A DNA stretch of 64,000 bases, from assembly GCA_000997385.1 (NCBI GenBank), contig LCBT01000001.1, positions 243,663-307,662 of the forward strand, in the 5' to 3' direction. The position numbers and the translations under genes were made by a program. The DNA comes from Candidatus Daviesbacteria bacterium GW2011_GWA1_41_61 (GTDB taxonomy: Bacteria > Patescibacteriota > Microgenomatia > Daviesbacterales > UBA10151). Shown here in pieces: positions 4,408-63,224 of this stretch. The stretch's first letter is position 1. Each line of letters opens with the position of its first letter. The notes under the pieces are model-generated. The model was given only the letters and a program-made list of their open reading frames with translations, made no database searches and was not told where the DNA came from.

Positions 4408-4410
4408 TAA

Positions 4411-5322
4411 CTATTGGCTTTTACGTTTTTTTAGTAGTTCTAAAGCTGAGCTACTAGTAGCAGTCGTAGTAACGGTTGCAGTGATAGTCGGTGAAACCAC
4501 TTCCATATTCACTAGATTTGGATCTGGATTAGAAACTGCCTCAGGAGTATTCCCCTCAACAGGGACAAAGATGCCAGAGGTCCCTCCACTCTCCTCTATC
4601 GGCACTTCAGATGGAGCTTGGGAGAGCGGTTTACCAATCCCTAAGATAAAATACGCTGAAGCTCCCCCCACCGCCAGCAGTACTAACACTCCAACCAAAA
4701 TAATCCACTTGGGAAATCCCATAGAACCGGATGTAATCACCTGTTTCTCCTCTGAAGAAGTAGGAATAACCATCGAAGAAGCAGTAGTAACTGCAGAAAT
4801 AGGAACCTCCAGGGGTGCTTCTTCTCCACTGCCAGTAGTTCCCACCAAATGACTTAAATCAGTCGGAGCAGCCTCATTTGAGCCAATTGGACTAACTAAA
4901 GGGTTAGTAGGGGCACCGGCATCTAAACTGCCACCGTCAGGGCTTGATCCAGTTGGAATGGAAGAAGGAGCAAAAGTCGGTGGGGGTTCAATATTACCAA
5001 AGCTTTGGGTAGTTGGGGCAGAAAAAGCTCCTAAGTCTTGAGAAGGCCAGGAAGGCTGGTAGACAGGGTTGCTATCAGGAGAAAATGTCGGTACGGGTGC
5101 CGGGGTGTTAGGATCTGCAGGAGCAGCTTCACCAAGCCCAGAGGCAGGTGGAGAGGCAGGAGATAAGCTGGGAAAATCTAAAGAAGGACCAGGAGCAGAT
5201 AAATCAGCTCCGGAGGAAGGAAAAGCAGTTGCCGCTGGAGTATTATCACCAGGATCAGAAGAAGAAATAGGAGTAGGGGGAACACCAGGGGCAGAGGGAT
5301 TGGTTGGGTTATTGGGATCCAT
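4411..5322 (-). CDS. Pro/Ser/Thr-rich low-complexity membrane protein (single TM)
   Basis: 303 aa with a disordered P/S/T/G-rich N-terminal region, one TM helix (WIILVGVLVLLAVGGASAYFILGI), and a Thr-rich C-terminal tail. Confidence 0.55.
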   Translation of the reverse strand: MDPNNPTNPSAPGVPPTPISSSDPGDNTPAATAFPSSGADLSAPGPSLDFPSLSPASPPASGLGEAAPADPNTPAPVPTFSPDSNPVYQPSWPSQDLGAFSAPTTQSFGNIEPPPTFAPSSIPTGSSPDGGSLDAGAPTNPLVSPIGSNEAAPTDLSHLVGTTGSGEEAPLEVPISAVTTASSMVIPTSSEEKQVITSGSMGFPKWIILVGVLVLLAVGGASAYFILGIGKPLSQAPSEVPIEESGGTSGIFVPVEGNTPEAVSNPDPNLVNMEVVSPTITATVTTTATSSSALELLKKRKSQ

Positions 5323-47121: not shown

Positions 47122-47364
47122 TCAAAGTTTTCCTTGAAATGCTTGATGTAAAACTGACTGCTGCAAAGCTTCTAATTCTTGTAATTGTTCTCGCTGAAGT
47201 TTTTTCGCTTCTCCAATTTTTTCTGAACTGTGGCCTGCAGAAGTAATCAGCAAATCTCCAATTTGAACCCTTTTTAAACCTTTTAACGAATCTTGTTTGA
47301 CAAAACCCTTATCACTCTTACCCCAATTAATGCCATTTTTCAAATGCATTTTTTGTTTGTTCAT
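47122..47364 (-). pseudogene. Type I restriction S-subunit (HsdS)-like remnant
   Basis: The C-terminus …KKLQREQLQELEALQQSVLHQAFQGKL matches the conserved HsdS C-terminal helix (L..L..SLL..AF.G.L). The N-terminus VQIGDLLITSAG resembles a TRD start. The ORF is only 80 aa. Confidence 0.4.
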
Positions 47365-50039
47365 CTAAAAAGTTTAACTAAATTAGAGAACGTTTGAAGT
47401 TTATGTTCCTTAAACTTCTCCTCGGTTACATAAAGACAATCTACAGTTATTTTTGACCGGGCTTGATTAACATCTTTACACCATTGTTTTAGCCTTTCCA
47501 ACTTTAATAGGTCATCCAAGTCTTCTCTTCCTTTAGTTTCTACAACCCAAATTTCCTGATTATTTACTTTTACAAAAAAATCAGGATAGTAATACGAGAT
47601 TGACCCCTCAGAATTTTTATAATCTATCTTAAAATGTATATCAAAATAATTCTTGGCAAATGATAAAATATCATCACATTTTTCGAGAAAATCAGCAAAT
47701 TGGAGTTCAAAATTACTATCACCTACAATTTTATTAAATATACTTTTCTTAGGTAATAAATATGTATTGTCATTTACTACGAAAGGTTTGCACTTACTAA
47801 TCTTTATATAGTTTTTTATTTCTGCATTACCTTTATCCTCAATAGTAAGATCATTAATTTCCTTTTTGAAAGTTTCAGTTATGGTTTTTGTAACTTCCAG
47901 CTCTGATAAATTACGTAGTATATTCAAATCCTCTAAGTTAACGTGATCTACAAACAAATAATCACTAATGAATTCTTTTACCTGACCAAATAAAATATCG
48001 TAACAGCCAAATAGACGCAGTTCCCTCATGATTGTTTGAGCAAAAAAACCGATGGCGCTTTGATATCTTGGCTCAATATTGGTATCTAAAACTGTTGTGT
48101 GGTGAATTTTATCAGCCACAACCTCTTTAAAAATTATTTCCTTCTTTTCTTTGTCGCTAAACTGTTTAATTGGCATTTTTTTGTGTTTGAATTTAGAAAC
48201 ATCTAGATTTGAAAGATTTTTATATTCTCTCTGAATACGGGGGGTAAGAATAGGCAGTTCTATATCAAGCTTTTCAATATCCTTTTTAACATTTTCACTA
48301 TCCACCTCAACAACAACTGGTGTAATCGGCTTTGCTCCTATATCCATTGCCCTTTTTTCGAGTATCACACCTTCTATGTTGATAGATTCAACGAAATCCA
48401 TAAATGCCGGAGTACCAATAATACTAACGTATTCCTCTATATCATCTCTGCCAAAAAACATCCTTCTTAGACCTCTACCTAAGGTTTGTTCGGGTAAAAT
48501 ATTTGCAGTTGATGAATATGCCCGTAGCCCAACGATAGTAGTTACATTTTTTACATCCCATCCTTCCTTAAGCATGAGTACTGATACAATAGCTTTAAAA
48601 GGACTCTCGTTGCTATCTATAGTATTTGCCTGTTCTCTTAACTTAATCAATTCCTTCTCGTCCTTACCTTGAATAGCTTCTGATATCTCCCCACTTTTAT
48701 TAGTGTGAATCGTTAAAACTGCATTTTTAAATTCAGGGTATGTTTTTTCTATGTACTCTGCTACTTCATCACAATTTTTTGTATCGTCAGTCATTATAAA
48801 AAGTATCGATTTTTTACCAGTCTTTTGAAGTTCTTTATAAGTTTTTCTCCATTCAATAACACCGAGATTTATATAATCCTCGTACTTCTCAGTAAATAGA
48901 GAGCTTTGATTTTCCTTAAGTTTTGCCCTACTGGCCTGATCTGGTAATACAGGATTTTTAACAACTCTTTGATGAATTGCTTCAACTAGTGGGTAATCAG
49001 AGATAACCTGGACAAAAATATTTCCATTATTATGTTTTGGAGTTGCAGTTACATCTATCTGTAGCGCTAACTCACCACCCTTTAGTTTAAGCTTATTATG
49101 AATATCTTGAATTGATTTAAACCAGGCTAATTTTTCATCATGGATATGATGCGCTTCATCGTTAATAACTATCAACTCATTGATCTCGCGGACTATTTCA
49201 CTTAAATTTACTTTTGAGTCGTTAGTTTTACCTACTGGTTTTGGTCCCAAAAAATAGTTCATGCTGTCTTCATCTTCGGCACTCAATCCATTAATATTTC
49301 CCTCAAAAACGCGGTGAATATTTGTTAAAAAAATGTTTCCGGTCGTGGATATTAGACCTACCTCATCTTGTAAATGAAGCGTTACTTGAAAGTCATCTTG
49401 CCAATTCTGCCCTCCATACCCATTATCTGGAAGTATTGGATCAACGTGGAAGATTTTCAAACCCGCAAAATCATTTTTAATTCTTTCAAGCACAATAATA
49501 TTCGGAGTAATTAGTAAAAAGTTTCGTGCCAGTTTAGAGTCCGGTTCATAAAGCTTATGAAAATATGCCCAAGCTAAAATTAAACTCATTACCTTTGTTT
49601 TTCCGCTGCCTGTTGCCATTTTAATGACAAACCTGAGCCAATCCTCATCAAACATATTAGGACTTACCCTACCCAATGAATCAAACTTTATTAAGTCATA
49701 CTTACTTTTAACTTTTGCAACTTCGTATAGCCATACGACTGTTTCAACTGCTTCTCTTTGGGAAAAATAATATCTAAAAGGGGTAGATACACCATTCTGG
49801 TCAAATATTGTATGTTCCTCTTTAAACCACCAATTCAAGAGAGCTTTTGAAGTTTCAGAAGCATCTGCATAATTACTGTTACGCCACTCCTTTACTTTTT
49901 TACGTAACTCCGAAATAAAAGGAGGTAGTAGTCTTTCATAACCACCTTTTTCTCTTAAATCCTCAACAGCGGGGAACCATCTTATATCTGGATCTAAAAT
50001 AACGTATGGGTCTTTTGGAAAATCTTTATGTAGTGCCAT
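47361..50039 (-). CDS. res: Type III restriction enzyme Res-like subunit (SF2 helicase plus C-terminal PD-(D/E)xK nuclease)
   Basis: Walker A KMATGSGKTKV, DEAH box VINDEAHH, and the C-terminal YYPDFFV…VVETKG nuclease motif. Confidence 0.8.
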   Translation of the reverse strand: MALHKDFPKDPYVILDPDIRWFPAVEDLREKGGYERLLPPFISELRKKVKEWRNSNYADASETSKALLNWWFKEEHTIFDQNGVSTPFRYYFSQREAVETVVWLYEVAKVKSKYDLIKFDSLGRVSPNMFDEDWLRFVIKMATGSGKTKVMSLILAWAYFHKLYEPDSKLARNFLLITPNIIVLERIKNDFAGLKIFHVDPILPDNGYGGQNWQDDFQVTLHLQDEVGLISTTGNIFLTNIHRVFEGNINGLSAEDEDSMNYFLGPKPVGKTNDSKVNLSEIVREINELIVINDEAHHIHDEKLAWFKSIQDIHNKLKLKGGELALQIDVTATPKHNNGNIFVQVISDYPLVEAIHQRVVKNPVLPDQASRAKLKENQSSLFTEKYEDYINLGVIEWRKTYKELQKTGKKSILFIMTDDTKNCDEVAEYIEKTYPEFKNAVLTIHTNKSGEISEAIQGKDEKELIKLREQANTIDSNESPFKAIVSVLMLKEGWDVKNVTTIVGLRAYSSTANILPEQTLGRGLRRMFFGRDDIEEYVSIIGTPAFMDFVESINIEGVILEKRAMDIGAKPITPVVVEVDSENVKKDIEKLDIELPILTPRIQREYKNLSNLDVSKFKHKKMPIKQFSDKEKKEIIFKEVVADKIHHTTVLDTNIEPRYQSAIGFFAQTIMRELRLFGCYDILFGQVKEFISDYLFVDHVNLEDLNILRNLSELEVTKTITETFKKEINDLTIEDKGNAEIKNYIKISKCKPFVVNDNTYLLPKKSIFNKIVGDSNFELQFADFLEKCDDILSFAKNYFDIHFKIDYKNSEGSISYYYPDFFVKVNNQEIWVVETKGREDLDDLLKLERLKQWCKDVNQARSKITVDCLYVTEEKFKEHKLQTFSNLVKLFR

Positions 50040-50104
50040 ATATCATTATCAAAGCCATCTGAAAATGGAAAATGAGTCCTTTAGCCTCAAAAATTCAGAT
50101 TGTT

Positions 50105-51475
50105 TTACCTATTTTCAACCCCCTTTGAAAACAGACTAAGTTGTTGCATATTCTCTTTAGTTTTTTGCTGGATTGTTTTTTTTGCTTTAAGAATAAACTT
50201 AATTGGCAGATAATCCTGTGTTAATCCCCAATATTTCAGTTTTCCTTCCTGTTTTTTCACCTCTATTACCCCAGCATCTCTTAATGGATTAAAATAATAA
50301 CCAGATATATTTGAGGGAGCTTTTTTTAATTGTATGGCTAAATCTTTTTGAGTTACATAGTTACTTGATGTTGCTAAAAATATTAGTAGTTCTTCTTGTT
50401 CTTTTGTTAACTCGCTTTTTTTAATCACCTCCCAGCGTTCTTTACCAAGTAACAGCATTGCTTCATCAACACCCAAAGGCTCCAGTACTGTTTCAGGTAC
50501 CTGACTGAGAATATCCTTTAATCCATTCATAATCGAACGGGCATCTCCCTCGTATAAATCATATAAACTGAAAATTGCCTCATTTGAGAATGGTGCTATA
50601 TATTTAACGACATCAGGAGATTTTAATAGCTCCATTCTTTCTTCAAACGCTTTAATTATTTCTAATTTACTAAGTGGATTAACCACTAACGGTGATAAGT
50701 GAAATACACTTTTTAAACGTTTCTCTACAGATATAATATCTCTGAAGAAATGCTTTGGCCCTAAAAATAAATAATAAACATCTCTTGTTTGAAGAATATC
50801 CCGTATTTCCTGAAAAAATCCTATAACACCCTTTTTTTCTTTTGAGTCGGATAGCACAATATCAAAATTATTGATATGAACAATAAGACCACCAAACTTT
50901 TTCCCTGCTATTTCATGAGTCTTTATAAACTCCACAAGATTAGAAAAATAGTTTTCGAGCATGGTATTTGATATACTTGGGGGATATTCTGTTGTTCCTG
51001 TTTTACCGAACTCTCCACCAAACCCCGCAATACTAATTCCTGCGGAAATATCTAAACTTTGAGTAATATCAACAAGTTTTTCTAGTTTTTGAAGTAATTC
51101 TTCTTTTTTGATAAGATCAGGGTCAAGAAGTCTGATCTCCCTAAGGGTAGATCCGATAACCTCTGTTAAGAAACTTTTTTTGTTTAAAAGATTTTTTGAT
51201 GCTTCTATTTCCCTTCGGAACGAAAAAAGAGGTTTCTTTTTCTCTTCATATTTAAATAGAAACTTATGGAAATTAGCCAAGCTTGTTTTGCCTACACCGA
51301 CATTTCCAAGAATTGTCAAACAGGCTCTTGAATCAGAAAGAAAGATATCCTTCAGGCTTTGAAGCTCGACAGTTCTTCCTACAAATGCTTTGTGGATAGG
51401 TAATTCCCCACCCTCTATAAGAGGGAGAGTATCATAAGGGTTGCTTCGTAATCCAAATTGCTGCCAGTTAATCAT
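50105..51475 (-). CDS. P-loop NTPase (AAA_16/STAND-like) with C-terminal winged-helix domain, embedded between mod and res
   Basis: FVGRTVELQSL…ILGNVGVGKTSLANF Walker A. C-terminal wHTH-like region …TQKDLAIQLKK…GVIEV…. Confidence 0.6.
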   Translation of the reverse strand: MINWQQFGLRSNPYDTLPLIEGGELPIHKAFVGRTVELQSLKDIFLSDSRACLTILGNVGVGKTSLANFHKFLFKYEEKKKPLFSFRREIEASKNLLNKKSFLTEVIGSTLREIRLLDPDLIKKEELLQKLEKLVDITQSLDISAGISIAGFGGEFGKTGTTEYPPSISNTMLENYFSNLVEFIKTHEIAGKKFGGLIVHINNFDIVLSDSKEKKGVIGFFQEIRDILQTRDVYYLFLGPKHFFRDIISVEKRLKSVFHLSPLVVNPLSKLEIIKAFEERMELLKSPDVVKYIAPFSNEAIFSLYDLYEGDARSIMNGLKDILSQVPETVLEPLGVDEAMLLLGKERWEVIKKSELTKEQEELLIFLATSSNYVTQKDLAIQLKKAPSNISGYYFNPLRDAGVIEVKKQEGKLKYWGLTQDYLPIKFILKAKKTIQQKTKENMQQLSLFSKGVENR

Positions 51476-51592
51476 ATGTATTTTCTATATATATAGTTAT
51501 TTATACAAATCTCTATATATTAAATTTGCTTTATAATCAAGTAGCCACACTTAATAGTATTCATGCAATTAATTTATTCCTCTTTTATATAA

Positions 51593-53767
51593 CTATATAT
51601 TTACCTCAATAACTTTTGTTGTGTCGTTGCCAAAAATATCTACAACTTTTACTGCAAGTTTGCGTGATCCCTTTGAGACTTCTTTAGCTGCCGAAATTAA
51701 TTCTAAACTTCGATCTTTTTTGGTACGGAATGATTGCCATTCATTTTCAAAAATATAGTTTCCCGTCCAGGCATCTTCTTCATCTTCATTTTTTTGATTC
51801 CTTATTCTTATGAATTCCTTTTTACTTTCAAAGTTAAAATCTACCGCCCAATAATCAACCCAATCTGTCCATTTCGTTGTTAAAACCTCACGGTTAATAA
51901 CCTCTGAATCCTTGCCTTTACTAAGTCTTATAACTTGACCATTTTCAATCACAACCTTACTGCCTCCAGATTTTAACTTTTCTTCAACCTCTCCTGTATC
52001 ATCTTGGTTATAAAAAACACTAAAATCACTTAATTCAATAGCTACAGTATTCTTTTTGACAATTGGTTTAACCTCTATAAATGCCACCTCGTAGAATTTT
52101 ACTTGTCCCTTTTCAACAGCTTTTTTATCAAATACCTCTCGTGGTATTACTCTAAGTTGCAGATCAACTCCTTGATTTTTAAACTGATCTACTTCAAGTC
52201 CCATCTCCCAATCAAACCCAAGTACGTCTACTTTGGTAATGTTTTTCTCTACACATTCAACTACTACTTGATGTAAAAAGTCTCCGGAAACAGGAAAGTT
52301 TATTGGACCGATAGCCACAAGGCGGTCTCTTTTTTTACCGACCATAGTTAAAAATGAATCCACAGGTTCCGCTTTGTATGCTGACAATATCAATTTAATA
52401 AATTCTTTTTCTTTTATGTCTTGTTGTAATTGTCTTTCTTCTTCTCTTAAATCTGGGTTTACTTGGATAAACAAATCCCGTTCGTATGTTCCTATATTCA
52501 AAATTTCAAAGGCTCTAAAATTCTTACCCACTTTTTTCAGTTCTCTTTGAACTCCAATCATTCTTTTACGAGTAGTATGAATAGCAAATCTTCCCAAATC
52601 AGAACCAATCCATTTTCTACCCAACTTCTCGGCAACTGCTAATGTAGTTCCAGAACCCACAAAAAAATCTGCAACGATATCACCTTCATCAGAAGAAGCA
52701 GTGATTATACGTCTAAGTAGGAATTCAGGTTTTTGTGTAGGATAATCAAGCAATTCCTTTGAGGAAGTTGCAACCCCAAATCCTGGAATGTCTGTCCAGA
52801 TAGAATCCTGGGGAATTGTGTATTCATCTAAATAGTATTTTTTATATTTTTGCCCACTTGAAGAAACATAAATTAACCCTCTTTCTTCAAAATCTTTTAT
52901 CGATATTGGTGAATAATCGCCAAGAGTAGTTCTTTTGAATTTTCTACCATCAGGATCTTGATATCTAAATTCATTGAGTTGCTTATCGACAAGAGTGCCA
53001 CTTTGAGGGTGAAATATATGTGAGTCTGATTTTGAGTAACAAAAAATTATATCAAACGTTTTTGGCCAATGTTTTGCTACTGCTTTTGCACCTTTACCTA
53101 CAGCATCTTTTTTCCAAATAATTTCTCCACGGTAATTAGCACTACCAAACAATTCATTTAGAATCATCCTTAGATAGCTGTTAAGTCGCCAATCGCAATG
53201 GACATATATACTTCCTTTATCTGCTAGTAAATCAGCCATTAATTTTAATCGCTCATAAATCATTGCAATAAAACTGTCAGCTCCTTTACCCCAAGTGTCC
53301 CGATAAGCAACTTCTTCTATAATTGAGGGTTTCTTAGTAAATTCTTCATCACCTATCTGTACATTCATGGAAAAATCAGCACCTACATCAAATGGTGGGT
53401 CAATATAAATGAGTTTTATACCACCTTGAGCTTCAATTTCTTTACGGAGGGGACCGTTTTTAAGGGAGGACAGAATTAATTTATTGTCGCCCCAGATAAG
53501 TTTGTTTGTCCAGCCTTGGATTTGATGACCGGAAGTGTCAAAAAGAGTTTGTTGCATTTTTATCTCCGCTTCACTTCTTGGCTCATCAATATGCTCAATT
53601 GTTTGAAAAGGGAGAACAATATTACTAACCTCATTTGTCTTCCCATTCCACACCAACTCAACCTCCCGTTCATCATCAAAAAGAAGAAACCTGTACTTAT
53701 CGGGTAATGGCTTACCTGATTCAAGGTATTTTATAACATCACGTTTTTCATTGTCAGATAGTTTCAT
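51593..53767 (-). CDS. mod: Type III Mod-like beta-class N6-adenine (or N4-cytosine) DNA methyltransferase with roughly 300-aa C-terminal extension
   Basis: Motif IV IDPPFD precedes motif I FFVGSGTT (beta-class order). Total 724 aa. Confidence 0.8.
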   Translation of the reverse strand: MKLSDNEKRDVIKYLESGKPLPDKYRFLLFDDEREVELVWNGKTNEVSNIVLPFQTIEHIDEPRSEAEIKMQQTLFDTSGHQIQGWTNKLIWGDNKLILSSLKNGPLRKEIEAQGGIKLIYIDPPFDVGADFSMNVQIGDEEFTKKPSIIEEVAYRDTWGKGADSFIAMIYERLKLMADLLADKGSIYVHCDWRLNSYLRMILNELFGSANYRGEIIWKKDAVGKGAKAVAKHWPKTFDIIFCYSKSDSHIFHPQSGTLVDKQLNEFRYQDPDGRKFKRTTLGDYSPISIKDFEERGLIYVSSSGQKYKKYYLDEYTIPQDSIWTDIPGFGVATSSKELLDYPTQKPEFLLRRIITASSDEGDIVADFFVGSGTTLAVAEKLGRKWIGSDLGRFAIHTTRKRMIGVQRELKKVGKNFRAFEILNIGTYERDLFIQVNPDLREEERQLQQDIKEKEFIKLILSAYKAEPVDSFLTMVGKKRDRLVAIGPINFPVSGDFLHQVVVECVEKNITKVDVLGFDWEMGLEVDQFKNQGVDLQLRVIPREVFDKKAVEKGQVKFYEVAFIEVKPIVKKNTVAIELSDFSVFYNQDDTGEVEEKLKSGGSKVVIENGQVIRLSKGKDSEVINREVLTTKWTDWVDYWAVDFNFESKKEFIRIRNQKNEDEEDAWTGNYIFENEWQSFRTKKDRSLELISAAKEVSKGSRKLAVKVVDIFGNDTTKVIEVNI

Positions 53768-53879
53768 ATTTTCATGCCTATATTAAAGCACAAATCTTGT
53801 CCTGCCTGCTATTTTAGTACTTAACCTGGGTGAAAACAATGTAAAGAGGTCTTATCTTGTAAAAAGGTTTTGAAGTACT

Positions 53880-55172
53880 ATGATTATCCTAAGAAGTGAA
53901 GGGGTGATTATGAAAAATCTGTTAAAAAAAGTCAGGAAGTTGGTGGAAAAATTGTTGCTTCGGCTGAAGCTGTATTTTAAAAAACTACTGTTTCCCTTAT
54001 ACCTTTTTCCTTTAAAGATTGCTACTTATTCCCTGTATTACTTGATTTTATTTATCATTAAGCTAATCCTGGCTTTATTGGGGCTTCTTTTTGATGCCCT
54101 AAAATACCCTTTTAAATCCATGAAACATTTTTTAAAATTTGCCCTGCTTCTGTCAGCATCTTTATACCTTGTGGCATCACTATTTGTGATTGCCGACTAT
54201 TTGCGCATCCAATACGGTTTTTATGGCAAATTTTTCTGTGCTTACGGTACCAAAGAAAAATTATTAAGCTCAGTTGTCCGGATAGTGGGTGGTTATTCTG
54301 AAGGTTCGGGCTTCTTCATCTCTGAAACCTCGGTATTAACCAATTTCCATGTTATTGCCGATGAACCAAGTCCAAAGATTATTTTTCCTGACGGCAAATT
54401 TATTACCCCTATTAAAATCCTGGGCGATAAAAATGCCGATTTAGCAGTTTTAATTACCGATAAAAAGTATCCTGAAAAAGTATTATCCATCCCTAGTCAA
54501 GTAGAGTTTAAAGCAGATGAGCCACTGATCTCTGCAGGTTATCCGCTGGGAACAAATCTGACCGGAAACGCTACTGTAGTGAGGGGTAATTTTATCGATT
54601 TCCGCCATTCCAAGAACAACCCGGTTTATTACATCCAAACCAACATCAGCTTAGTAGAAGGCATGAGTGGAGGACCGCTAACAGATCAGTGTGGAAAGGT
54701 TATGGGTGTAAATACCATGAGTTTGGCAGGATTATCCCTGTTTATCGGAGCTGACCAGGTAAAGTCTATGGTTTCCAGTTTTTCAGACCAGGGGATAACC
54801 AAGATCGAGGTTGATCCATCCGCTTCCCCGGAGGATTCAGTCAAAGCTTTTTACACTTATCTTAAAGCCAGGAGGATGGAAGATGGCTTTAAACTGTTAA
54901 GCCAGGAATATCTTAAGAAAACGAATTTTCAGGAATGGACCAGCAGGTTTAAGGATATTTTGGATGTCAACATAATTAAATCAGAAAAGCTTGAAAATTC
55001 GCCAGATTCGGCTTTTATTAAGTTTTCAACAAAAAACTGGATAGATAATGAGGCGGAGGTGCATTTTTACGAAGGGACCTGGCAAACAGTTAAGGAAGAT
55101 AGGGTGTATAAAATGCTTAAAAGTAATATTAAGGAGATCTACAACCCCGGCTATTTATGGTTTTATGAATAA
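53880..55172 (+). CDS. Membrane-anchored trypsin-like (S1) serine protease
   Basis: Multi-TM N-terminus. Catalytic triad His (TNFHVIAD), Asp (NADLAVL), Ser (GMSGGPL). A roughly 100-aa C-terminal domain of unknown function. Confidence 0.75.
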   Translation: MIILRSEGVIMKNLLKKVRKLVEKLLLRLKLYFKKLLFPLYLFPLKIATYSLYYLILFIIKLILALLGLLFDALKYPFKSMKHFLKFALLLSASLYLVASLFVIADYLRIQYGFYGKFFCAYGTKEKLLSSVVRIVGGYSEGSGFFISETSVLTNFHVIADEPSPKIIFPDGKFITPIKILGDKNADLAVLITDKKYPEKVLSIPSQVEFKADEPLISAGYPLGTNLTGNATVVRGNFIDFRHSKNNPVYYIQTNISLVEGMSGGPLTDQCGKVMGVNTMSLAGLSLFIGADQVKSMVSSFSDQGITKIEVDPSASPEDSVKAFYTYLKARRMEDGFKLLSQEYLKKTNFQEWTSRFKDILDVNIIKSEKLENSPDSAFIKFSTKNWIDNEAEVHFYEGTWQTVKEDRVYKMLKSNIKEIYNPGYLWFYE

Positions 55173-55249
55173 AATTATGTTTTCCAACCCCAAGGGTTGT
55201 TTGGCTTCTAACCTCGGGTACTATGATCTAAAGCATTATAAAAAAGTTA

Positions 55250-55279
55250 CGCCAGATTTTGCGCGTGATTTGCGCAAGA
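55250..55279. repeat. 30-bp perfect direct repeat, copy 1 (CGCCAGATTTTGCGCGTGATTTGCGCAAGA)
   Basis: Identical to 56437-56466. The two copies flank the Fic gene. Confidence 0.9.
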
Positions 55280-55281
55280 TG

Positions 55282-55308
55282 TGATATAATTATCCGAAAG
55301 GATAATTA
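55282..55308 (+). promoter_or_regulatory. Extended -10 element (TGaTATAAT) overlapping a 9-bp-stem hairpin with GAAA loop, upstream of fic
   Basis: TGATATAAT at 55282-55290. Hairpin arms TAATTATCC (55287-55295) and GGATAATTA (55300-55308) around a GAAA loop. Confidence 0.4.
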
Positions 55309-55374
55309 ACAGGTTCTGCAAGCAAGCTGTAAAATTTCTCTACAGCGAGCGAAGCAAGTCCTTATAATATACCT

Positions 55375-56433
55375 ATGTTTAAGCCAAATTACACCATTAC
55401 ACCCCTCATTCTCTCCCGAATAGCCGAAACTGCAGAAATCAAAGCTGCCGTGGAAAGATCCAGAGTTTTACCCCTTAATGAAGCCCAGTTAAAAAGACAG
55501 GCAATCCTCCGAATGGCCCATACCTCTACTTCTATTGAAGGTAACAAATTGGCTCAATTTGAAGTTGGCAAAGTGCAGGAGGGTAAAACAGTCAGAGCTC
55601 CCCAAAAAGATATTTTGGAAGTAGAAAATTACTTAAATGCCTTAAAACTTTTAGATAATTTATCTAAAACAAAAAATCATCTTACCATCCAGGAGATCCT
55701 GACTATGCATAAAACAGTGATAGACGGGCTGGTGGATGAGGAAAAGTCGGGTAAATTTCGCCCGGCAGATGTTTATGTCATCGATGATTTAGGAGGAGGT
55801 AAGGAAATGCTAAGATTTAAAGCTCCTCCGGCAAGCAAAGTTGCTGGGTTAATTGACGACTTACTCCGCTGGATTAGATCCGCCAAAGAAGCTGGAACCC
55901 ATCCGATTGTGGTAGCAGGGATCTTCCATATGGAATTTGTTTCCATCCATCCTTTTACTGATGGAAATGGCAGGGCAGCCAGGCTTTTAACCCAACTTTT
56001 GCTCTACAGGATGAACTGGGACTTTCGAAAAATTATCGTTTTGGAAGACTATTACAATAGGGATCGTTTAGCCTATTACAATGCCGAGCACTATGATGAG
56101 GGAAAGGAGTACCAACAAGGCAGAGATTTCACCCATTGGTTAGAGTATTTTTCCACGGGTTTTTTAGTCGAAGCCAGAAAAGCGCTGGAACAGATCCAAC
56201 TAATAGGCTACGGACAGGTTAGTAAAAAATCAGAGACTGTTTATTTAGATAGAGACGAACTGCAAATAATGGATTTTTTAACAACAGTGGGGAGGATTAC
56301 TTCCGAGGACATTGTGGATATTTTAAAGGTTTCAAAACGCACAGCTCAACTCAAGCTTAAGAAATTACTGGATTATGGCTTGATAAAGCGTCACGGCAGC
56401 ACCACGGCTACTCAGTACACTCTGAAAAAATGA
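55375..56433 (+). CDS. Class II Fic-domain AMP-transferase with N-terminal inhibitory helix and C-terminal wHTH
   Basis: Fic motif HPFTDGNGRAAR. The upstream STSIEGN matches the (S/T)xxxE(G/N) autoinhibition motif. C-terminal HTH-like …SKRTAQLKLKKLLDYGLI…. Confidence 0.85.
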   Translation: MFKPNYTITPLILSRIAETAEIKAAVERSRVLPLNEAQLKRQAILRMAHTSTSIEGNKLAQFEVGKVQEGKTVRAPQKDILEVENYLNALKLLDNLSKTKNHLTIQEILTMHKTVIDGLVDEEKSGKFRPADVYVIDDLGGGKEMLRFKAPPASKVAGLIDDLLRWIRSAKEAGTHPIVVAGIFHMEFVSIHPFTDGNGRAARLLTQLLLYRMNWDFRKIIVLEDYYNRDRLAYYNAEHYDEGKEYQQGRDFTHWLEYFSTGFLVEARKALEQIQLIGYGQVSKKSETVYLDRDELQIMDFLTTVGRITSEDIVDILKVSKRTAQLKLKKLLDYGLIKRHGSTTATQYTLKK

Positions 56434-56436
56434 TTT

Positions 56437-56466
56437 CGCCAGATTTTGCGCGTGATTTGCGCAAGA
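56437..56466. repeat. 30-bp perfect direct repeat, copy 2
   Basis: Identical to 55250-55279. Begins 4 nt after the fic stop codon. Confidence 0.9.
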
Positions 56467-56493
56467 ACTTTCAACTTAACCCATCAGCAGCCA

Positions 56494-57489
56494 TTATCCA
56501 TTAAAGTGCTTACCTTTCATCCTCAAAACAGTTAAGATTCCTTTTATAATCTCTTTACCAGTTAAACCATACTTTTCTAAAAGTTCTGCCCCTTCCCCTG
56601 ACTGGCCAAACTTATCCTCTACCCCGATAATCTTAACAGGTATAGGGTACTGTCCGGATAAAAATTCTGCAACTGCTGACCCTAATCCCCCAGCTGCTTG
56701 ATGTTCCTCCACAGTGACTATACCTCCCGTTTCCTCTGCTGCCTTAAGGATTGCCTTTTTATCCAGAGGTTTGATGGTGGAACAATTTATTACCCGAACA
56801 CTAATATTACTCTCTTGTAACTGCCTGGCTGCCAAAAGCGCTTGGTACACCATCTGGCCGCAAGCTATCACCGTTACATCTTGGCCTTCCTGAAAAACCT
56901 CTGCCTGACCTATCTTAAAAGGAGTATCTTTGGTAGTCATAACCACTGTTTTATCTCGCAGTAACCTTAAATAACAAGGCCTTTTAAGTTTGGCTATCTC
57001 TAAAGTAGCCTTTTTAGCTTCTAAACTATCACAGGGGGAAATTACCACCATATTTGGCAAGACCCTCATTAAGGCAACATCTTCTAAAGCTTGATGGGTA
57101 GCTCCATCAGCCCCCACATTTAAACCGGCATGGGAACCGATAATTTTAACCGATTGGTTGTTGTAACAGATAGTTGTTCTGATTTGTTCCCAATTCCTGC
57201 CAGGGGAAAAAACAGCATAAGAGGTCATAAAAGGTATTTTCCCTACTGCTGCTAAACCTGAAGCCACTGCTGCCAAGTTTTGTTCTGCTACCCCCACCTC
57301 CACAAACCTTTGGGGGAACTTTTGGGCAAAAGCTTCTACTTTAGTAGACTCTTCCAAATCTGCAGTTAACACCACCACCTGAGGATTTTCCTCACCAGCC
57401 ATTACCAACCCTTCCCCAAACCCCTCCCTCATGGAAACCATTTCCATATCTTCATCAAACAACTTGGGGTTTAATTTTGTATTAATCAT
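56494..57489 (-). CDS. Transketolase, C-terminal subunit (pyrimidine-binding plus C-terminal domains)
   Basis: 331 aa. …EQNLAAVASGLA…, and a Tkt C-terminal domain. Overlaps the N-terminal subunit gene. Confidence 0.85.
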   Translation of the reverse strand: MINTKLNPKLFDEDMEMVSMREGFGEGLVMAGEENPQVVVLTADLEESTKVEAFAQKFPQRFVEVGVAEQNLAAVASGLAAVGKIPFMTSYAVFSPGRNWEQIRTTICYNNQSVKIIGSHAGLNVGADGATHQALEDVALMRVLPNMVVISPCDSLEAKKATLEIAKLKRPCYLRLLRDKTVVMTTKDTPFKIGQAEVFQEGQDVTVIACGQMVYQALLAARQLQESNISVRVINCSTIKPLDKKAILKAAEETGGIVTVEEHQAAGGLGSAVAEFLSGQYPIPVKIIGVEDKFGQSGEGAELLEKYGLTGKEIIKGILTVLRMKGKHFNG

Positions 57490-58342
57490 GATGTCCTGGC
57501 TGGATCTTTCCTTGCAAACTTCTTAACTCTTTTAAGGCTTTTCTGGCTTCTTCTTTATCAGGCGGCTTACCGTGCCATTGAAAGTCATTTTCCATAAAGT
57601 CCACCCCTTTTCCAGGGATAGTGTGGGCGATAATCAAAGTAGGTTTTTCAAAGATTGCTTTAGCTTCTTCAAAAGAACCAATAATAGCCTCAAAGTTATG
57701 TCCGTCAATCTCCAGCACATGCCAACCAAAAGCCTCATATTTTTCTTTTAAGGGCTCCAGGGGCATAACATCTTCCGTAAAGCCGTCTATTTGAATATTA
57801 TTACGGTCTATTAAAGCCGTGAGGTTGTGCAGTTTATATTTACCGGCAAAAAGTACCGCTTCCCAGACATTGCCGCAGTCCTGTTCAGCATCAGACATTA
57901 AACAGACCACCCTCCATTTAGCCTCATCCCTCAGCCCCGCTAAGGCCATACCTGAGGATTGAGAAAGCCCTAATCCCAAAGGACCGGAAGTAGTCTCCAG
58001 TCCCAACAAAGAGCCGCGGTGAGGATGGCCTTGCAGTCTGGAACCTAACTTCCGAAGAGTCAAAAGCTCATGGTGAGGAAAATACCCGGCATGAGCTAAA
58101 GTAGCATATAAAACCGGACAGATATGGCCATTGGATAAAACCAGTCTATCCCTATCCTGCCACTGAGGATTTTTACAGTTATGCCTTAAGATATGGAAAT
58201 AAAGGGCGGTGAAAATATCAGCCATACCCAGCGGTCCGGCACTATGGCCTGAACCAGCTTGATAGAGCATGGTGATAATATCCTCACGGATGAAGGTGGC
58301 TTTTGCTTCTAACTCCGCTATCTTTTGGGCAGAGAGACTCAT
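57482..58342 (-). CDS. Transketolase, N-terminal subunit (TPP-binding)
   Basis: 286 aa. GHSAGPLGMAD, and a GDG-like TPP motif region …LMSDAEQDCGNVWEA…. Confidence 0.85.
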   Translation of the reverse strand: MSLSAQKIAELEAKATFIREDIITMLYQAGSGHSAGPLGMADIFTALYFHILRHNCKNPQWQDRDRLVLSNGHICPVLYATLAHAGYFPHHELLTLRKLGSRLQGHPHRGSLLGLETTSGPLGLGLSQSSGMALAGLRDEAKWRVVCLMSDAEQDCGNVWEAVLFAGKYKLHNLTALIDRNNIQIDGFTEDVMPLEPLKEKYEAFGWHVLEIDGHNFEAIIGSFEEAKAIFEKPTLIIAHTIPGKGVDFMENDFQWHGKPPDKEEARKALKELRSLQGKIQPGHHD

Positions 58343-58350
58343 ATTAAAAA

Positions 58351-59022
58351 CTATTGAATGGCAAAACCGTCTTCACTGCTTACCTTCATTGCCTTGTGCC
58401 TGTCTGCTTCAACTTCATCCTCAAATTCGGTAATCGCCTTCAACACCTGATAGGGGGTAGTGGCAATCTTAAAAACTTCTAACTCCTCCGGACGAAGCAA
58501 GAGGTTAGCTTTTAAAGTTCTCATAATCTTCTGCCAAAAATCTCCATATAAAATTAGCGGTTTATGATGACCAAAATAAATCCTGGCCAGCCCCCAGGCC
58601 ATCCCGAACTCAGACATTGTTCCTGAAGCTCCGTTAAAGACGATATAAACCTGTCCTTCTTTTAATAAAGTCAAGGTTCTTTCTATATAGGTGGTAGTTT
58701 TAATCTCTTCGTCAATGGGATTACTAACATCCCGACCTTCAAAGTGGTCGGCATCTTTAGGATAAAAAGTGACACCGATAACTTTCCCCCCTCCGGCCTT
58801 AGCACCCAAGGTAGCTGCTTCCATCACCCCCGGACCTCCGCCATCAACAACTGTATAACCGGCCTCAGCTAAAGATTGACAGACCTTATAGGCATCCTTG
58901 TAAACCTTATCGGCGGGCTTGGCATCGGCAAAGCCAAAGACTGTGACTTTTTCAATAGCCCGGGCTTTAGGCGGAGGTTGCGGCTTGCCTAATTTTTTCC
59001 AAATTCTGAGCAATGTTTCCAT
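58351..59022 (-). CDS. LOG-family protein (TIGR00730; cytokinin riboside 5'-monophosphate phosphoribohydrolase-like)
   Basis: GGGPGVMEA and NGASGTMSE motifs. The annotated start overlaps rpe by 56 nt, so the true start may lie downstream or use a non-ATG codon. Confidence 0.7.
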   Translation of the reverse strand: METLLRIWKKLGKPQPPPKARAIEKVTVFGFADAKPADKVYKDAYKVCQSLAEAGYTVVDGGGPGVMEAATLGAKAGGGKVIGVTFYPKDADHFEGRDVSNPIDEEIKTTTYIERTLTLLKEGQVYIVFNGASGTMSEFGMAWGLARIYFGHHKPLILYGDFWQKIMRTLKANLLLRPEELEVFKIATTPYQVLKAITEFEDEVEADRHKAMKVSSEDGFAIQ

Positions 59023-59683
59023 CAGTTAAATATTGTCCTATGATTAGATTATCAGCTCCCGCCTCTACTATTAGTTTAGCATTTTTCTCAGTAATGCCAC
59101 CATCCACCTCTATTTTAAAGTTTAACTTATTTTGACGTCTAATATCAGCAGCCTTTTTGACTCTTTCTATAGCCCGCATATCAAATTGCTGCCCCCCAAA
59201 ACCAGGATTAACACTCATTATAAGTAAAACATTAATGTCATAAAGATAAGGATTAAGTTCTTCCATCGGAGTATCTAAGTTAATAGCTAAACCACTTTCA
59301 ATACCTTCATCCTTAATATGCAAGCCATGATCTTCAATATAATCTAGATTACTACGAACATAATCCTCCCAACGTTCACTTCCTGGTGATCTGGGGTCAG
59401 ATTCAAGGTGAATAATAATTCTTTCAAATTCTTGTTCTATCAGCTCTTTTATCCACTCAATCGGGTGAAACACCATTAGGTGAGCCTCTCTTTTTAACTT
59501 AGTAGGATAACGGGCAACTATGTCCAAACTAATACTTATGTTTTGAACAAATGTATTATCCATGAGGTCTATTTGTACCCATCCTCCCTCAAACTCCTGA
59601 CAAGAGTGGATCTTCTCCAGCTTTTGACGGTACTGTTTCTCAGTGGTGGCTAAAATAGCCGGAATAATTTGAATTTTAGTCAT
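58967..59683 (-). CDS. rpe: Ribulose-phosphate 3-epimerase
   Basis: …IDLMDNTFVQN…HLMV… TIM-barrel Rpe motifs. 238 aa. Confidence 0.8.
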   Translation of the reverse strand: MTKIQIIPAILATTEKQYRQKLEKIHSCQEFEGGWVQIDLMDNTFVQNISISLDIVARYPTKLKREAHLMVFHPIEWIKELIEQEFERIIIHLESDPRSPGSERWEDYVRSNLDYIEDHGLHIKDEGIESGLAINLDTPMEELNPYLYDINVLLIMSVNPGFGGQQFDMRAIERVKKAADIRRQNKLNFKIEVDGGITEKNAKLIVEAGADNLIIGQYLTDGNIAQNLEKIRQAATSA

Positions 59684-60125
59684 ACTGCTTCTCTACTTCT
59701 TCAATCTTTCCTAAACGGCGAATATGACGGGGATCTTGAGAAAAAGGAGTTTGCAGAAATGTTTGGACAACTGCCCAAGCCATCTGCTCCTTTAAAACAT
59801 CAGCCGGTAAAGAAATAACATTAGCGTCTTCATCTTCCCTGGCCTGTTTAGCCCGGGCGGTATCAAAAACTAAAGCTGATCTTATCCCGGGGACTTTATT
59901 GGCCACCATATCCACTCCAGCCCCCGAGCCACAAAAAAGAATTCCTTTGTTCTCTTCAGATGTTACAGTAGCTTCAGCTACTTTTAAAGCATAATCAACA
60001 TAATCATCAGCAGGGTTCAAGCGGTCATTTCCTAAATCAGTTACCTCAAACCCTTCATCAATCAGCCTTTTCTTGATTCTTTCTTTCAACTGGAAACCTC
60101 TGTGATCTGCACCAATGTAAACCAT
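59676..60125 (-). CDS. rpiB: Ribose-5-phosphate isomerase B
   Basis: MVYIGADHRGF…LFCGSGAG. RpiB/LacAB family. 149 aa. Confidence 0.85.
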   Translation of the reverse strand: MVYIGADHRGFQLKERIKKRLIDEGFEVTDLGNDRLNPADDYVDYALKVAEATVTSEENKGILFCGSGAGVDMVANKVPGIRSALVFDTARAKQAREDEDANVISLPADVLKEQMAWAVVQTFLQTPFSQDPRHIRRLGKIEEVEKQYD

Positions 60126-60128
60126 AAC

Positions 60129-60698
60129 TTAATTTAACTCAAACAGCCGCTTAAATACAAGGTAGGTAGCCTTGGCGTCATCCAAAGCCTGATGGCTTTC
60201 TCCTCTCTCTAATTTTAAATATTTACAAATTTGTCCTAAACTAAATCTTTTAAGAACTCTTTTGTTAAATAACTTGAGATAAACCATCGGCATCACATCC
60301 AGCCGGTGGTAATAAAAAGGATCTTGCCTTCCTAAAGCAAAATATGCTTTATCTAACAACGCCCAATCATAAGTTACATTATAGCCAACCAACACTCCGC
60401 CCTGGGCAAATTGATCCAATTTCTCCAAAGCTTCTTTCAAGGTTAAAGCATCTTTCCAAGCCTCTTTAGAGTACCCTACCATCTTCAACGCTACTTTGTC
60501 AGCCGCTGGCAAATTATCAGGTTTAACCTTAATAGAGAATTTATCTAAGATTTTAAATGGTCTTTTAGAGTTGACTTTGACTGCCCCGATCTCAATGATT
60601 TCATGTTTTTGAACCTCCAAACCAGTTCCTTCAAGATCTAAAAAGATTAGAGGACGATCCCGCATCACCGTTTTATGAGCATCAGTCTTAATATCCAT
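60129..60698 (-). CDS. DEDDh 3'-5' exonuclease (DnaQ-like)
   Basis: Exo I FLDLEGTG, Exo II GYNVTYDWALL, Exo III HQALDDAKAT. Confidence 0.75.
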   Translation of the reverse strand: MDIKTDAHKTVMRDRPLIFLDLEGTGLEVQKHEIIEIGAVKVNSKRPFKILDKFSIKVKPDNLPAADKVALKMVGYSKEAWKDALTLKEALEKLDQFAQGGVLVGYNVTYDWALLDKAYFALGRQDPFYYHRLDVMPMVYLKLFNKRVLKRFSLGQICKYLKLERGESHQALDDAKATYLVFKRLFELN

Positions 60699-60793
60699 AA
60701 ATCCTGTTTGATATATTACGACAGAGTTGACCAGTTTTGCTAGGGGTGATATAAAATTATCACCTGATAATATTCCTTATTGAGTAATTTGAC

Positions 60794-61447
60794 TCAAACA
60801 AAAGTTTCCGGTAGTTGGGCTTTTAACTCTTCAACAGTTGTATCTCCTCCATGACCAGGATAAACCATAGTCCTTCCTGCCAGTTTCAAAATTTTCTTGA
60901 CAGATTTTGCCAGCTGGGAAAAAGAAGCATACCGAAGATCAGTTCTTCCCACTATCCCCCCAGCAAAAAGCAGATCCCCGCAAACTAACAGATGATCTTT
61001 TTTACTGTAAAGACAGACTCCTCCTGGGGTATGTCCGGGTGTTTCTATCACCTCCAGCTTCTCTTCTCCTAAAGAAAGGGTTTTTTCTTCCGGAAAAGGG
61101 AATGGTTCCACAAGCAATGGATCTGCTTTAACAGCGGTAAAATGTTCAGCACTATTTTTGGCCTGTTTTAATAAAAAGAGGTCTTTAGGATGAATATAAA
61201 AAGGAATTTTACAAGTTAAAGCTATTTCACTCACAGCTAAAACATGGTCAAAATGCCCATGGGTGGCTGCCACCCAAAAAGGTTTTAAGTTTAATTTGGC
61301 AATCTGATCAATAATATATTCCCCATCATCCCCGGGATCAATAATCCCGACATTACCTGAAGCTTCCACCAGATAACAATTAGTTTTAAGTTGTCCAACA
61401 ATTAAAGGAATAATTTTCATAAAAAATATCATACCATGAAGCATCAA
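60794..61447 (-). CDS. MBL-fold metallo-hydrolase
   Basis: HxHxDH motif ATHGHFDHV. 217 aa. Confidence 0.8.
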   Translation of the reverse strand: MMLHGMIFFMKIIPLIVGQLKTNCYLVEASGNVGIIDPGDDGEYIIDQIAKLNLKPFWVAATHGHFDHVLAVSEIALTCKIPFYIHPKDLFLLKQAKNSAEHFTAVKADPLLVEPFPFPEEKTLSLGEEKLEVIETPGHTPGGVCLYSKKDHLLVCGDLLFAGGIVGRTDLRYASFSQLAKSVKKILKLAGRTMVYPGHGGDTTVEELKAQLPETFV

Positions 61448-61583
61448 ACCTCAATCAAGCTTCCATCCAAGATCATTTGATGCTAAAATGAGCAAAGCTC
61501 TTACTTCATAATAGGCTAAATATTTGGGGGTCATCTAATGGTAGGATAATAGGCTCTGAACCTATCAATCATGGTCCGAATCC

Positions 61584-62102
61584 ATGCCCCCAAGCACTTC
61601 GAGTACAATTAGAACCGCTTTTGGTATACTTATTTTTGTGAAAAATCTTTATCAAAATTCTCAACTATTAACCCAAAAAGATTTTAAAAAATTAGAAAAA
61701 GCTTTTGAATATGCATGGTCAAAAGAAACAACTAGTCCGATTATAGAAGACGAATGGTCAGAAGATAATAAAGCATACGGACAATGTGCCATTACAGCTT
61801 TAATCATTTGTGATTTATATGGAGGTAGAATAATTTATGATAAAGGTAACTTACACGTTTGGAATGAATTACCCGATGGAACACAACAAGATTTTAGTAG
61901 AAAACAATATAAAGAAGATCTAATTTTTACGATTTACAAATATAAAACTAAAGGAGATTTGTTATCTGACAATTATGGTCGAAAAACGCAAATTACCCCA
62001 AGATACCAATTACTAAAACAAAGACTAGAAGCAAAACTCAAAAGATTAAAATTCAATGTTAATTCATTAGTAATTTTACTTCCCCTCAATCGATTAAGAT
62101 AA
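61584..62102 (+). CDS. Hypothetical protein (A+T-rich gene)
   Basis: 172-aa ORF with no clear motif. Its start may be an internal GTG (VKNLYQ…). Convergent with the small peptide ORF. Confidence 0.45.
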   Translation: MPPSTSSTIRTAFGILIFVKNLYQNSQLLTQKDFKKLEKAFEYAWSKETTSPIIEDEWSEDNKAYGQCAITALIICDLYGGRIIYDKGNLHVWNELPDGTQQDFSRKQYKEDLIFTIYKYKTKGDLLSDNYGRKTQITPRYQLLKQRLEAKLKRLKFNVNSLVILLPLNRLR

Positions 62103-62198
62103 TTAGATTTTCTTTAAAGTTTTTGTTTGTTTTGAAGTTTTTTTTACTTTGATACTTTTTACAGCTTCAAAATCTAGGACTGCCTTACATTTTCCCAT
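62103..62198 (-). CDS. Unannotated 31-aa Lys-rich peptide ORF immediately downstream of tandem radical SAM genes (candidate precursor or small protein)
   Basis: Canonical SD AAGGAGGT located 9 nt upstream of ATG 62198. Sequence MGKCKAVLDFEAVKSIKVKKTSKQTKTLKKI. Lies 58 nt after the rSAM stop. Confidence 0.4.
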   Translation of the reverse strand: MGKCKAVLDFEAVKSIKVKKTSKQTKTLKKI

Positions 62199-62255
62199 TT
62201 TTAAATACCTCCTTTCTTGGTTTAAATTCAGATTTATAACTATGAGTATAACATA

Positions 62256-63224
62256 TCAATCAAAAAAATGAGCTACGATATTATCGTAGTCGATAATATT
62301 TCTCATATTACTACGGCTTACATATGCCTGAGAATTTTCCATTATTTCTTTGAAAGCTGATATTTTAGCATCTAACACTTGTTTCTTTAAATTAGAAAAT
62401 GTTTCAGTAGGATATTTGCAAAGTGCCAATTTGAGAGGAAAGCCATACCACGGTAAAACATATCCATTTGGTAATATATGTAAAGAAGGTATTGTAAAAA
62501 GAACCTTATTTTTTTGTAATTCAGTCTTCTTTACAAGATTTGAAGTCAAATAAATATTATATTTCTCTTTCAGACGTTTAAGCGTACTATTAAGTGAAAT
62601 CAAGTGTTTTTCATCACAACCAATTGTTTGTTTGTGTTTTATTGCTCTCCCATAAAAATCAACGTGAGAAAAACGAATTGCCCGAACTCCTTTATCGATA
62701 CATATATTAACTACATCTTCCATATAAGGAAGCGTCTGAGGAGTTACCATAGATTGCACAAAGACAGGAATTTTTTCGACCTGTAATAGGCTAAGGGCAT
62801 CAATAGCTGCAACATAACTACTATCTTGCCTTCGTAACCAATCATGAGTTCTTTTACATCCATCGATACTTATTCCTACACCGTCTACATACTTCTTAAA
62901 TCTGTGCAGGTTCGTTCTATTAAGCAAAATGCCATTTGTAAAAATGTAGACTTTTATTTGGCTATTGAGTTGCTTTATGTATTTTACCAGAGGAACAATT
63001 TTCTTTAACACCAAGAGAGGTTCACCCCCAGAAATCGTAAATGCGTTAAAACCATTATCTATTAAATCTTTAAGTACTAATTTCCAATCATCCAATTCCA
63101 ATTCCTCAGCTAAAGAATGTCCTGCTTCCGTAAAACAATGTAAACATTGTAAGTTGCATTGTTTGGTAATTTCTAAGAGAACATGACGGTGAAAATTATA
63201 ATTTTTGACTAAAATATTATTCAT
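62256..63224 (-). CDS. Radical SAM enzyme (core domain only)
   Basis: CNLQCLHC (Cx3Cx2C) at residues 23-30, and a GGEPLL motif. Its start overlaps the upstream gene stop (TAATG). Confidence 0.8.
   Translation of the reverse strand: MNNILVKNYNFHRHVLLEITKQCNLQCLHCFTEAGHSLAEELELDDWKLVLKDLIDNGFNAFTISGGEPLLVLKKIVPLVKYIKQLNSQIKVYIFTNGILLNRTNLHRFKKYVDGVGISIDGCKRTHDWLRRQDSSYVAAIDALSLLQVEKIPVFVQSMVTPQTLPYMEDVVNICIDKGVRAIRFSHVDFYGRAIKHKQTIGCDEKHLISLNSTLKRLKEKYNIYLTSNLVKKTELQKNKVLFTIPSLHILPNGYVLPWYGFPLKLALCKYPTETFSNLKKQVLDAKISAFKEIMENSQAYVSRSNMRNIIDYDNIVAHFFD

Follow-up and report, generated by a model that had tools for sequence, protein, structure and literature searches.

Matched direct-repeat arrays at both ends of a SoFic-type fic gene from a groundwater Daviesbacteria genome as predicted operators of a putatively autorepressed module

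In a 64-kb stretch of the genome of Candidatus Daviesbacteria GW2011_GWA1_41_61 (hereafter the window), a groundwater bacterium of the candidate phyla radiation (CPR), a single gene, fic, is bracketed by a perfect 30-bp direct repeat. Exact copies of this 30-mer, CGCCAGATTTTGCGCGTGATTTGCGCAAGA, lie on the plus strand at 55250-55279 and 56437-56466, and the one open reading frame (ORF) between them encodes a 352-aa protein of the Fic family. Does the repeat record the arrival of the gene, or does it belong to the gene itself? An original prediction, made from the sequence of this locus, described the perfect repeat around one gene, in which it was right, and read it as the product of site-specific insertion, which we do not find. 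We consider it fairly probable that the two 30-mers represent matched operator arrays of a self-contained, autorepressed fic module of the SoFic type. Judged from sequence comparisons, the array units are most likely bound by the C-terminal winged helix of Fic itself.

Each copy of the 30-mer sits inside a 34-nt array of three tandem 11-12-nt units of the type TTGCGCnnGAT. The upstream array (55247-55280, plus strand) holds repeat copy 1, is the predicted operator for the Fic winged helix, and consists of the units TTACGCCAGAT (55247), TTGCGCGTGAT (55259) and TTGCGCAAGAT (55270). The downstream array (56434-56467, plus strand) holds copy 2 and consists of TTTCGCCAGAT (56434), TTGCGCGTGAT (56446) and TTGCGCAAGAA (56457). 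Both arrays have the same orientation and the same 12 + 11 nt spacing of unit starts. The downstream array begins at the first base past the fic stop codon and takes up the greater part of the 60 nt that separate fic from the convergent transketolase gene (stop codon at 56494-56496).

The 30-mer pair is the longest direct repeat of the window. The match can be widened to 36/40 (55240-55279 versus 56427-56466); the extra 10 nt on the left agree at 6/10 positions, are A-rich, and were judged not meaningful. A search of the window allowing up to three mismatches found no third copy, 100 dinucleotide-preserving shuffles gave 0 matches, and no further three-unit array was found on either strand of the window. 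As it occurs twice in 64 kb, with the window otherwise free of unit arrays, the repeat does not behave as a dispersed element of the repetitive extragenic palindrome or miniature inverted-repeat transposable element kind. Nor does it have the form of a Xer/dif site: a pdif site is 28 bp long, with two 11-bp inverted arms around a 6-8-bp centre, and flanking sites are opposite in orientation, whereas the units here are direct, number three per array, and point the same way in both arrays. A scan of the window at Rfam gathering thresholds returned two tRNAs only, and a permissive scan of 55100-56600 returned chance-level matches only. An intrinsic terminator within the repeat was considered and rejected, as no T-tract accompanies its TTGCGC...GCGCAA hairpin. 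Near copy 1 there is a single terminator-like site (55185-55199), past the preceding protease gene, and no terminator-like hairpin was found in the 60-nt gap between fic and the transketolase gene.

The gene between the arrays (55375-56433, plus strand) encodes a class II Fic protein of the SoFic type. The Fic motif HPFTDGNGRAAR at residues 192-203 (nt 55948-55983) matches the active-site pattern HxFx(D/E)GNGRxxR. N-terminal to it on the same chain, the inhibitory motif STSIEG(N) at residues 51-57 (STSIEG at 51-56, nt 55525-55542) matches (S/T)xxxE(G/N). STSIEG is invariant across 22 aligned homologs, and the segment that holds it has low model confidence. The Pfam Fic family matched at 8.7e-19 (cut-off 24 bits), and matches to Fic_N and to winged-helix families of Pfam fell below their cut-offs. 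In the AlphaFold model (pLDDT 76), residues 293-350 (nt 56251-56424) form a helix-helix-helix-strand-strand winged helix with SKRTAQLKLKKL as the recognition helix. Translation, the Pfam Fic match and the model uphold the earlier assignment to class II, with a Fic motif, an N-terminal TSIEGN and a winged helix at the C terminus. The PADLOC SoFic model PDLC03963 matched residues 27-340 at 1.8e-50 over 300/361 profile positions, in keeping with a SoFic-type architecture. The NCBIfam SoFic equivalog scored only 49 bits against a cut-off of 550, and the protein is therefore a member of the SoFic family, not an ortholog. Sequence matches in the Protein Data Bank (PDB) were 4rgl and 7xux (for the latter, the match covers residues 28-338 at E = 6e-10). 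Foldseek gave full-length fold matches to the winged-helix Fic proteins 4rgl, 8cil (CbFic2), 7xux (CccR) and 3eqx (SoFic), and also to 3zcn. The gene is thus a class II, SoFic-type winged-helix member of the Fic family, with a putative anti-phage role.

Comparison of fic loci establishes the arrays and their geometry, shows that they are confined to the flanks of fic and covary with the recognition helix, and reveals how the downstream array is distributed by clade. The loci were drawn from genome and metagenome collections and from exact-protein look-ups, and encode proteins 25-91% identical to the query; a single-protein scan of the genome collection gave 14 of them. The 120 nt upstream of fic were surveyed in 43 complete loci, alongside 384 control windows. 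A three-unit tandem direct repeat with 11-12-nt spacing precedes fic in most of the 43, with array scores of 22-30; the controls reached 22 at most, with 21 as their 99th percentile. The unit sequence covaries with the recognition helix of the cognate protein: KRTAQLKLK goes with TTGCGCGAT and KRAAQLKLK with TTCGCGATAA, while RAKATRxLDF goes with AATCGTCTA and RTARxxCxQW with TTAATGGCA. Throughout about 600 kb of loci, the pattern of three phased units matched the flanks of fic only, always in gene orientation, apart from one probable chance match. Since units with lineage-specific sequences flank homologs in unrelated contexts, the arrays belong to the fic module and not to a target site.

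The upstream array lies at a promoter, as the original prediction proposed for copy 1. An extended -10 element, TGATATAAT (55282-55290, plus strand; its TATAAT part at 55285-55290), stands directly past the array. An extended -10 of the form TGnTAnnnT occurs at most 22 nt past the last unit in 25/29 loci of the TTGCGC-type group, and in most of these loci 6 nt lie between the end of the -10 box and the ATG, a leaderless arrangement.

The downstream array has a narrower distribution. It is present in about 15/17 loci with a protein that shares 54% identity or more with the query, as well as in L065 and L054, and is not present in more distant TTGCGC-type loci. Downstream arrays always lie 0-110 nt from the stop codon, in the same orientation and with the 12 + 11 spacing kept; unit matches in the 130 nt past the stop number 5.2 per kb against a background of 0.11 per kb. 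Such persistence and fixed geometry across the clade imply selection. The downstream neighbour is convergent in 15/16 loci with a downstream array and in 2/8 without one (Fisher p = 0.0013, not phylogeny-corrected), and in the remaining 6/8 a co-directional gene lies close behind fic. Upstream and downstream arrays from the same locus agree better with each other than arrays paired across loci do (26.5 versus 22.0 of 32 positions, permutation p < 1e-5), with a range from 23/32 to 31/32, the latter being the window. Throughout the family, the arrays of a locus tend to resemble each other, and the perfect identity seen in the window is the far end of this tendency. Yet an array matches the best one of another locus about as well as it matches its own partner, so that co-inheritance is inseparable from gene conversion, except perhaps in the window and in L049.

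Three Logan contigs, L127 (1136 nt), L128 (1131 nt) and L126 (1144 nt), hold fic only and both begin and end within the arrays. The contig ends of L127, which encodes an 85%-identical homolog, are an identical 27 nt and imply a perfect 33-nt flanking repeat; the window is thus not unique in having identical arrays. Those of L128 are an identical 21 nt and imply exact flanking repeats of more than 30 nt, which would take in the last fic codons. A distant homolog in L068 (36% identical; upstream motif of the AATCGTCTA type) carries three units resembling AATCGCATAT, spaced 10 nt apart and immediately past its stop codon (1529-1570), which may be an independent instance of a downstream array.

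What the arrays might do is suggested by studies of winged-helix Fic proteins, whose autoregulation is already known. CccR of Yersinia pseudotuberculosis (PDB 7XUX) uses its C-terminal helix-turn-helix (HTH) to repress its own promoter, where the protein binds two inverted 10-bp boxes near -35 and -10 (PMC9755527). The SoFic dimer binds specifically to the 100 bp immediately ahead of its own start codon (bioRxiv 10.64898/2026.07.09.737422). When CbFic2 of Coxiella burnetii (PDB 8CIL) binds DNA through its HTH, it changes from an AMPylating monomer to a deAMPylating dimer (PMC10628234). On the strength of this work and of the covariation described above, we take the upstream array as a predicted autorepression operator. 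The window protein shares its domain order with CccR, whose operator overlaps the core promoter and whose HTH is needed for binding and repression. A difference is the second array found here, 1.19 kb away at the 3' end of fic; another is that CccR is an effector secreted by a type VI secretion system, whereas nothing suggests secretion here. Likeness to SoFic, a single-gene anti-phage defence system (Shewanella oneidensis SO_4266 type), lies in the PADLOC match and the fold match to 3eqx/3zcn; the window gene is solitary and has a type III restriction-modification system as its neighbour, as in a defence island. In structural alignment the two proteins share only about 15% identity, and SoFic has neither a defined operator nor a described downstream site. 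CbFic2 is likewise a class II Fic protein with a winged helix/HTH, and is the second-best full-length fold match to the window protein; it differs in targeting host histone H3, and cognate repeats are not known for it. Its DNA switch suggests, by analogy, a model of how cognate DNA sites could control the toxicity of the window protein.

We infer the following scheme of Fic binding, repression, and either looping or a roadblock. The three direct 11-12-bp units of each array, about one helical turn apart, would be bound by the Fic winged helix. With the upstream array set directly against the extended -10 box, Fic bound there would block access to the promoter and so keep its own gene, a potentially toxic one, repressed. 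For the downstream array, that of an auxiliary operator is the probable, though less certain, role. Fic dimers might bridge both arrays and loop out the gene; the two DNA-binding domains of the CccR dimer point away from each other, a feature that we invoke for such bridging. Alternatively, Fic on the downstream array might act as a roadblock, insulating fic from transcription entering from, or running into, the convergent operon. A comparable layout is that of plasmid P1 repA, which has 19-bp iterons at its promoter (incC) and downstream of the gene (incA), the two arrays being bridged by the protein through looping or handcuffing. The analogy is one of layout only: a direct-repeat array at the promoter, a gene for a winged-helix binder (predicted here) and a second array past the gene. 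No replication function is involved here, the proteins are unrelated save for the winged helix, and the units are 11-12 bp against 19 bp.

Several observations weigh against this scheme. The operator of CccR consists of two inverted 10-bp boxes 26 bp apart, a design unlike the three direct repeats found here, and CbFic2 binds random DNA and shows little preference for sequence. A downstream array is missing from many family members, among them every one sampled at 46% identity or below, which makes it dispensable for the basic circuit. The correlation with neighbour orientation comes from crude ORF calls and phylogenetically non-independent loci. The 31/32 unit identity of the window arrays exceeds what binding constraints would require, which hints at recent gene conversion or duplication. 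In the window itself, a species-specific 72-nt insertion with two hairpins (55291-55362, plus strand) parts the array-linked -10 element from the start codon. The insertion is a gap in the alignment with the closest homolog locus, L027, is absent from other homologs, and is bracketed by TATAAT on both sides. The second TATAAT (55363-55368, plus strand) lies at the family-typical, leaderless distance of 6 nt before the ATG and was paired by a promoter scan with TCTACA across an 18-nt spacer. Because of this insertion and of the second TATAAT beside the ATG, the predicted operator may no longer control the active promoter in this genome, from which the insertion may have uncoupled it.

The insertion was also considered as a copy of a repeated element and rejected, there being no other copy in the window or in the homolog loci. 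In L031, L041 and L051, short palindromic insertions (about 32-80 nt) part the operator array upstream of fic from the -10 box, which suggests that small hairpin elements recurrently disrupt this junction.

The explanation that the repeat itself first calls to mind is a one-gene mobile cassette, with the 30-bp copies as a target-site duplication or as attL and attR, possibly duplicating the 3' end of an older ORF; we regard this as quite unlikely. It gains from the perfection and bracketing position of the repeat, and from comparison with L027, where fic is 91% identical, carries both arrays and occupies the corresponding end of a syntenic transketolase/pentose-phosphate operon; the operon proteins are only 49-82% identical to those of the window. 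Nucleotide similarity between the two loci begins at the upstream array and stops at the downstream one, exactly at the outer edges of the arrays. Closer relatives by transketolase (L121, L122 and L125, 76-85% identical) have other genes beside the operon and neither fic nor arrays, the contexts of fic differ among lineages (mostly antiparallel to both neighbours), and some Logan contigs begin and end within arrays. Clearly, fic has moved between contexts over evolutionary time, and the conserved module ends at the arrays. Against a cassette, upstream arrays occur in all contexts, including those of homologs without a downstream copy, so that the repeats are not target DNA, and no orphan single array was found in the relatives lacking fic (L121-L125). 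The two arrays of L027 have already diverged to 26/32, and the arrangement is therefore old and not a fresh scar. The element holds one gene, and no integrase or transposase Pfam family was found within about 6 kb on either side (genes 49375 to 62433), in agreement with the original prediction that no recombinase is nearby. To our knowledge, a target-site duplication of 30-34 bp far exceeds what transposases make. Phage carriage of fic was rejected, as viral contigs hold only distant homologs, at most 27% identical over the full length.

An empty site, that is, a single 30-mer joining the protease and transketolase regions, was sought through exact-protein look-ups of fic, the protease and a transketolase subunit. 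Only the occupied arrangement was returned, in all of more than 24 same-species contigs from several samples. The frame across the repeat that reads PDFARDLRK does exist as predicted; its interpretation as a duplicated 3' end of an ORF does not hold, as L027 has this frame closed; among the loci compared, the PDFARDLRK frame is not conserved and no shared small ORF runs across the arrays. The original prediction had named two observations that would count against it: a common dispersed repeat was not seen in the window or in about 600 kb of related loci, whereas the same arrangement in a related locus, with no empty-site variant, was. On sequence evidence, an insertion scar is not supported, and nothing points to a target-site duplication, to att sites or to active excision; the arrays travel with fic in unrelated contexts. 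One contig, L017, was tried as a variant locus and rejected. It is a low-coverage SPAdes contig that matches 51474-55675 of the window and then runs into unrelated sequence inside fic; the unrelated segments, at its 5' end (1-152) and within fic (4355-4596), most likely mark an assembly chimera.

Two further explanations accept that the arrays belong to the module and differ as to their function. It is unlikely, in our estimate, that the downstream array is a functionless remnant, left when the operator or module was duplicated in tandem and kept like its partner by occasional gene conversion with the upstream array. Such a history would account for unit-specific quirks shared by the arrays of one locus (a CGCC unit in the window, a GCGCGCTTT unit in L049), for the perfect or near-perfect identity in other members, with the exact 33-nt repeat implied by L127, and for the many subfamilies that have no downstream array. 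It fits poorly with retention of the array in nearly all sampled loci of a clade whose proteins are 54-100% identical, with a constant placement, orientation and spacing that speak for selection, and with the association with convergent neighbours. We find it very improbable that the arrays serve a factor other than Fic, such as a host regulator or a Xer-like recombinase acting as at dif/pdif, or that the downstream copy encodes an AS1-like antitoxin peptide. The unit TTGCGCGATAA does resemble what we take to be the XerC arm of dif, GGTGCGCATAA; the units are direct, though, and do not form inverted 11-6-11 arms, and the arrays occur beside fic only, with a sequence that tracks the Fic recognition helix. 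As for a peptide, a 24-codon ORF, with its ATG at 56430 overlapping the fic stop codon, crosses copy 2, and a gene for a 47-aa anti-Sofic peptide lies downstream of E. coli Sofic (PMC12249575). The frame is closed in L027, peptides, starts and lengths differ at every locus, and the identical upstream copy falls outside any credible gene. In four distant TTGCGC-type loci without a downstream array (L050, L056, L058 and L062), a co-directional gene of 118-347 aa follows fic by 2-43 nt; the pair may form a two-gene operon, with a possible bearing on the AS1 antitoxin idea.

A bolder version of the operator model, by analogy with CbFic2, would make the flanking arrays a DNA-encoded antidote and docking platform, and the locus a one-gene toxin-antitoxin-regulator module; we rate this as rather unlikely. 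Fic dimers bridging the arrays would be held in a harmless deAMPylating dimer state, as reported for CbFic2 on DNA. If array DNA were lost, damaged or occupied, as in phage attack or deletion of the locus, AMPylating Fic would be released. The 'antitoxin' would then in part be the flanking DNA of the gene itself, which is plausible in ultra-small CPR cells, where few sites can titrate few molecules.

Returning to the operator model, three of its elements appear new against the literature searched: an operator of three helically phased direct repeats in place of a widely spaced palindrome, the correspondence of recognition helix and motif across four subfamilies, and a matched second array at the 3' end of fic in a CPR-centred clade. 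Research on phage defence and on toxins is actively concerned with winged-helix Fic enzymes (SoFic, CccR, CbFic2), among which DNA targets are known for one protein only. For a large uncultured branch of the family, the comparisons supply a predicted operator, namely three phased direct repeats set against an extended -10, usually leaderless promoter. These predictions bear on how a potentially lethal single-gene system that moves between genomes could be silenced and insulated. The comparisons also remove a false lead, the reading of the repeat as an insertion scar.

The surroundings of fic are suggestive of a defence island (47361-55172). A type III restriction-modification set of lower GC content (0.31-0.37) lies on the minus strand, with Res at 47361-50039, an ATPase of unknown function at 50105-51475 and Mod at 51593-53767. 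Between it and fic, a membrane-anchored trypsin-like protease is encoded on the plus strand (53880-55172), and its protease domain matches the PADLOC LmuA and RT-Protease_XI models. In L027 (1-5700), a HigB/HigA-like pair and a gene for a DoxX-like membrane protein lie between fic and the transketolase operon, with an insertion sequence (IS)-type transposase upstream, and the 3' end of this operon is thus a variable region in the lineage.

Stand-alone fic genes also occur on plasmids of cultured Proteobacteria. On pTunz2 of Thiothrix unzii (L212, 1383-1482), four copies of ATTGGCTAA form direct repeats just upstream of the start, and in Mycetohabitans (L210) three AATGGGTG-like units do so. 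No downstream array was found in these two stand-alone plasmid homologs, which offer culturable systems for the operator model. Several other plasmid homologs of cultured bacteria lie within type I restriction-modification operons and have no promoter of their own.

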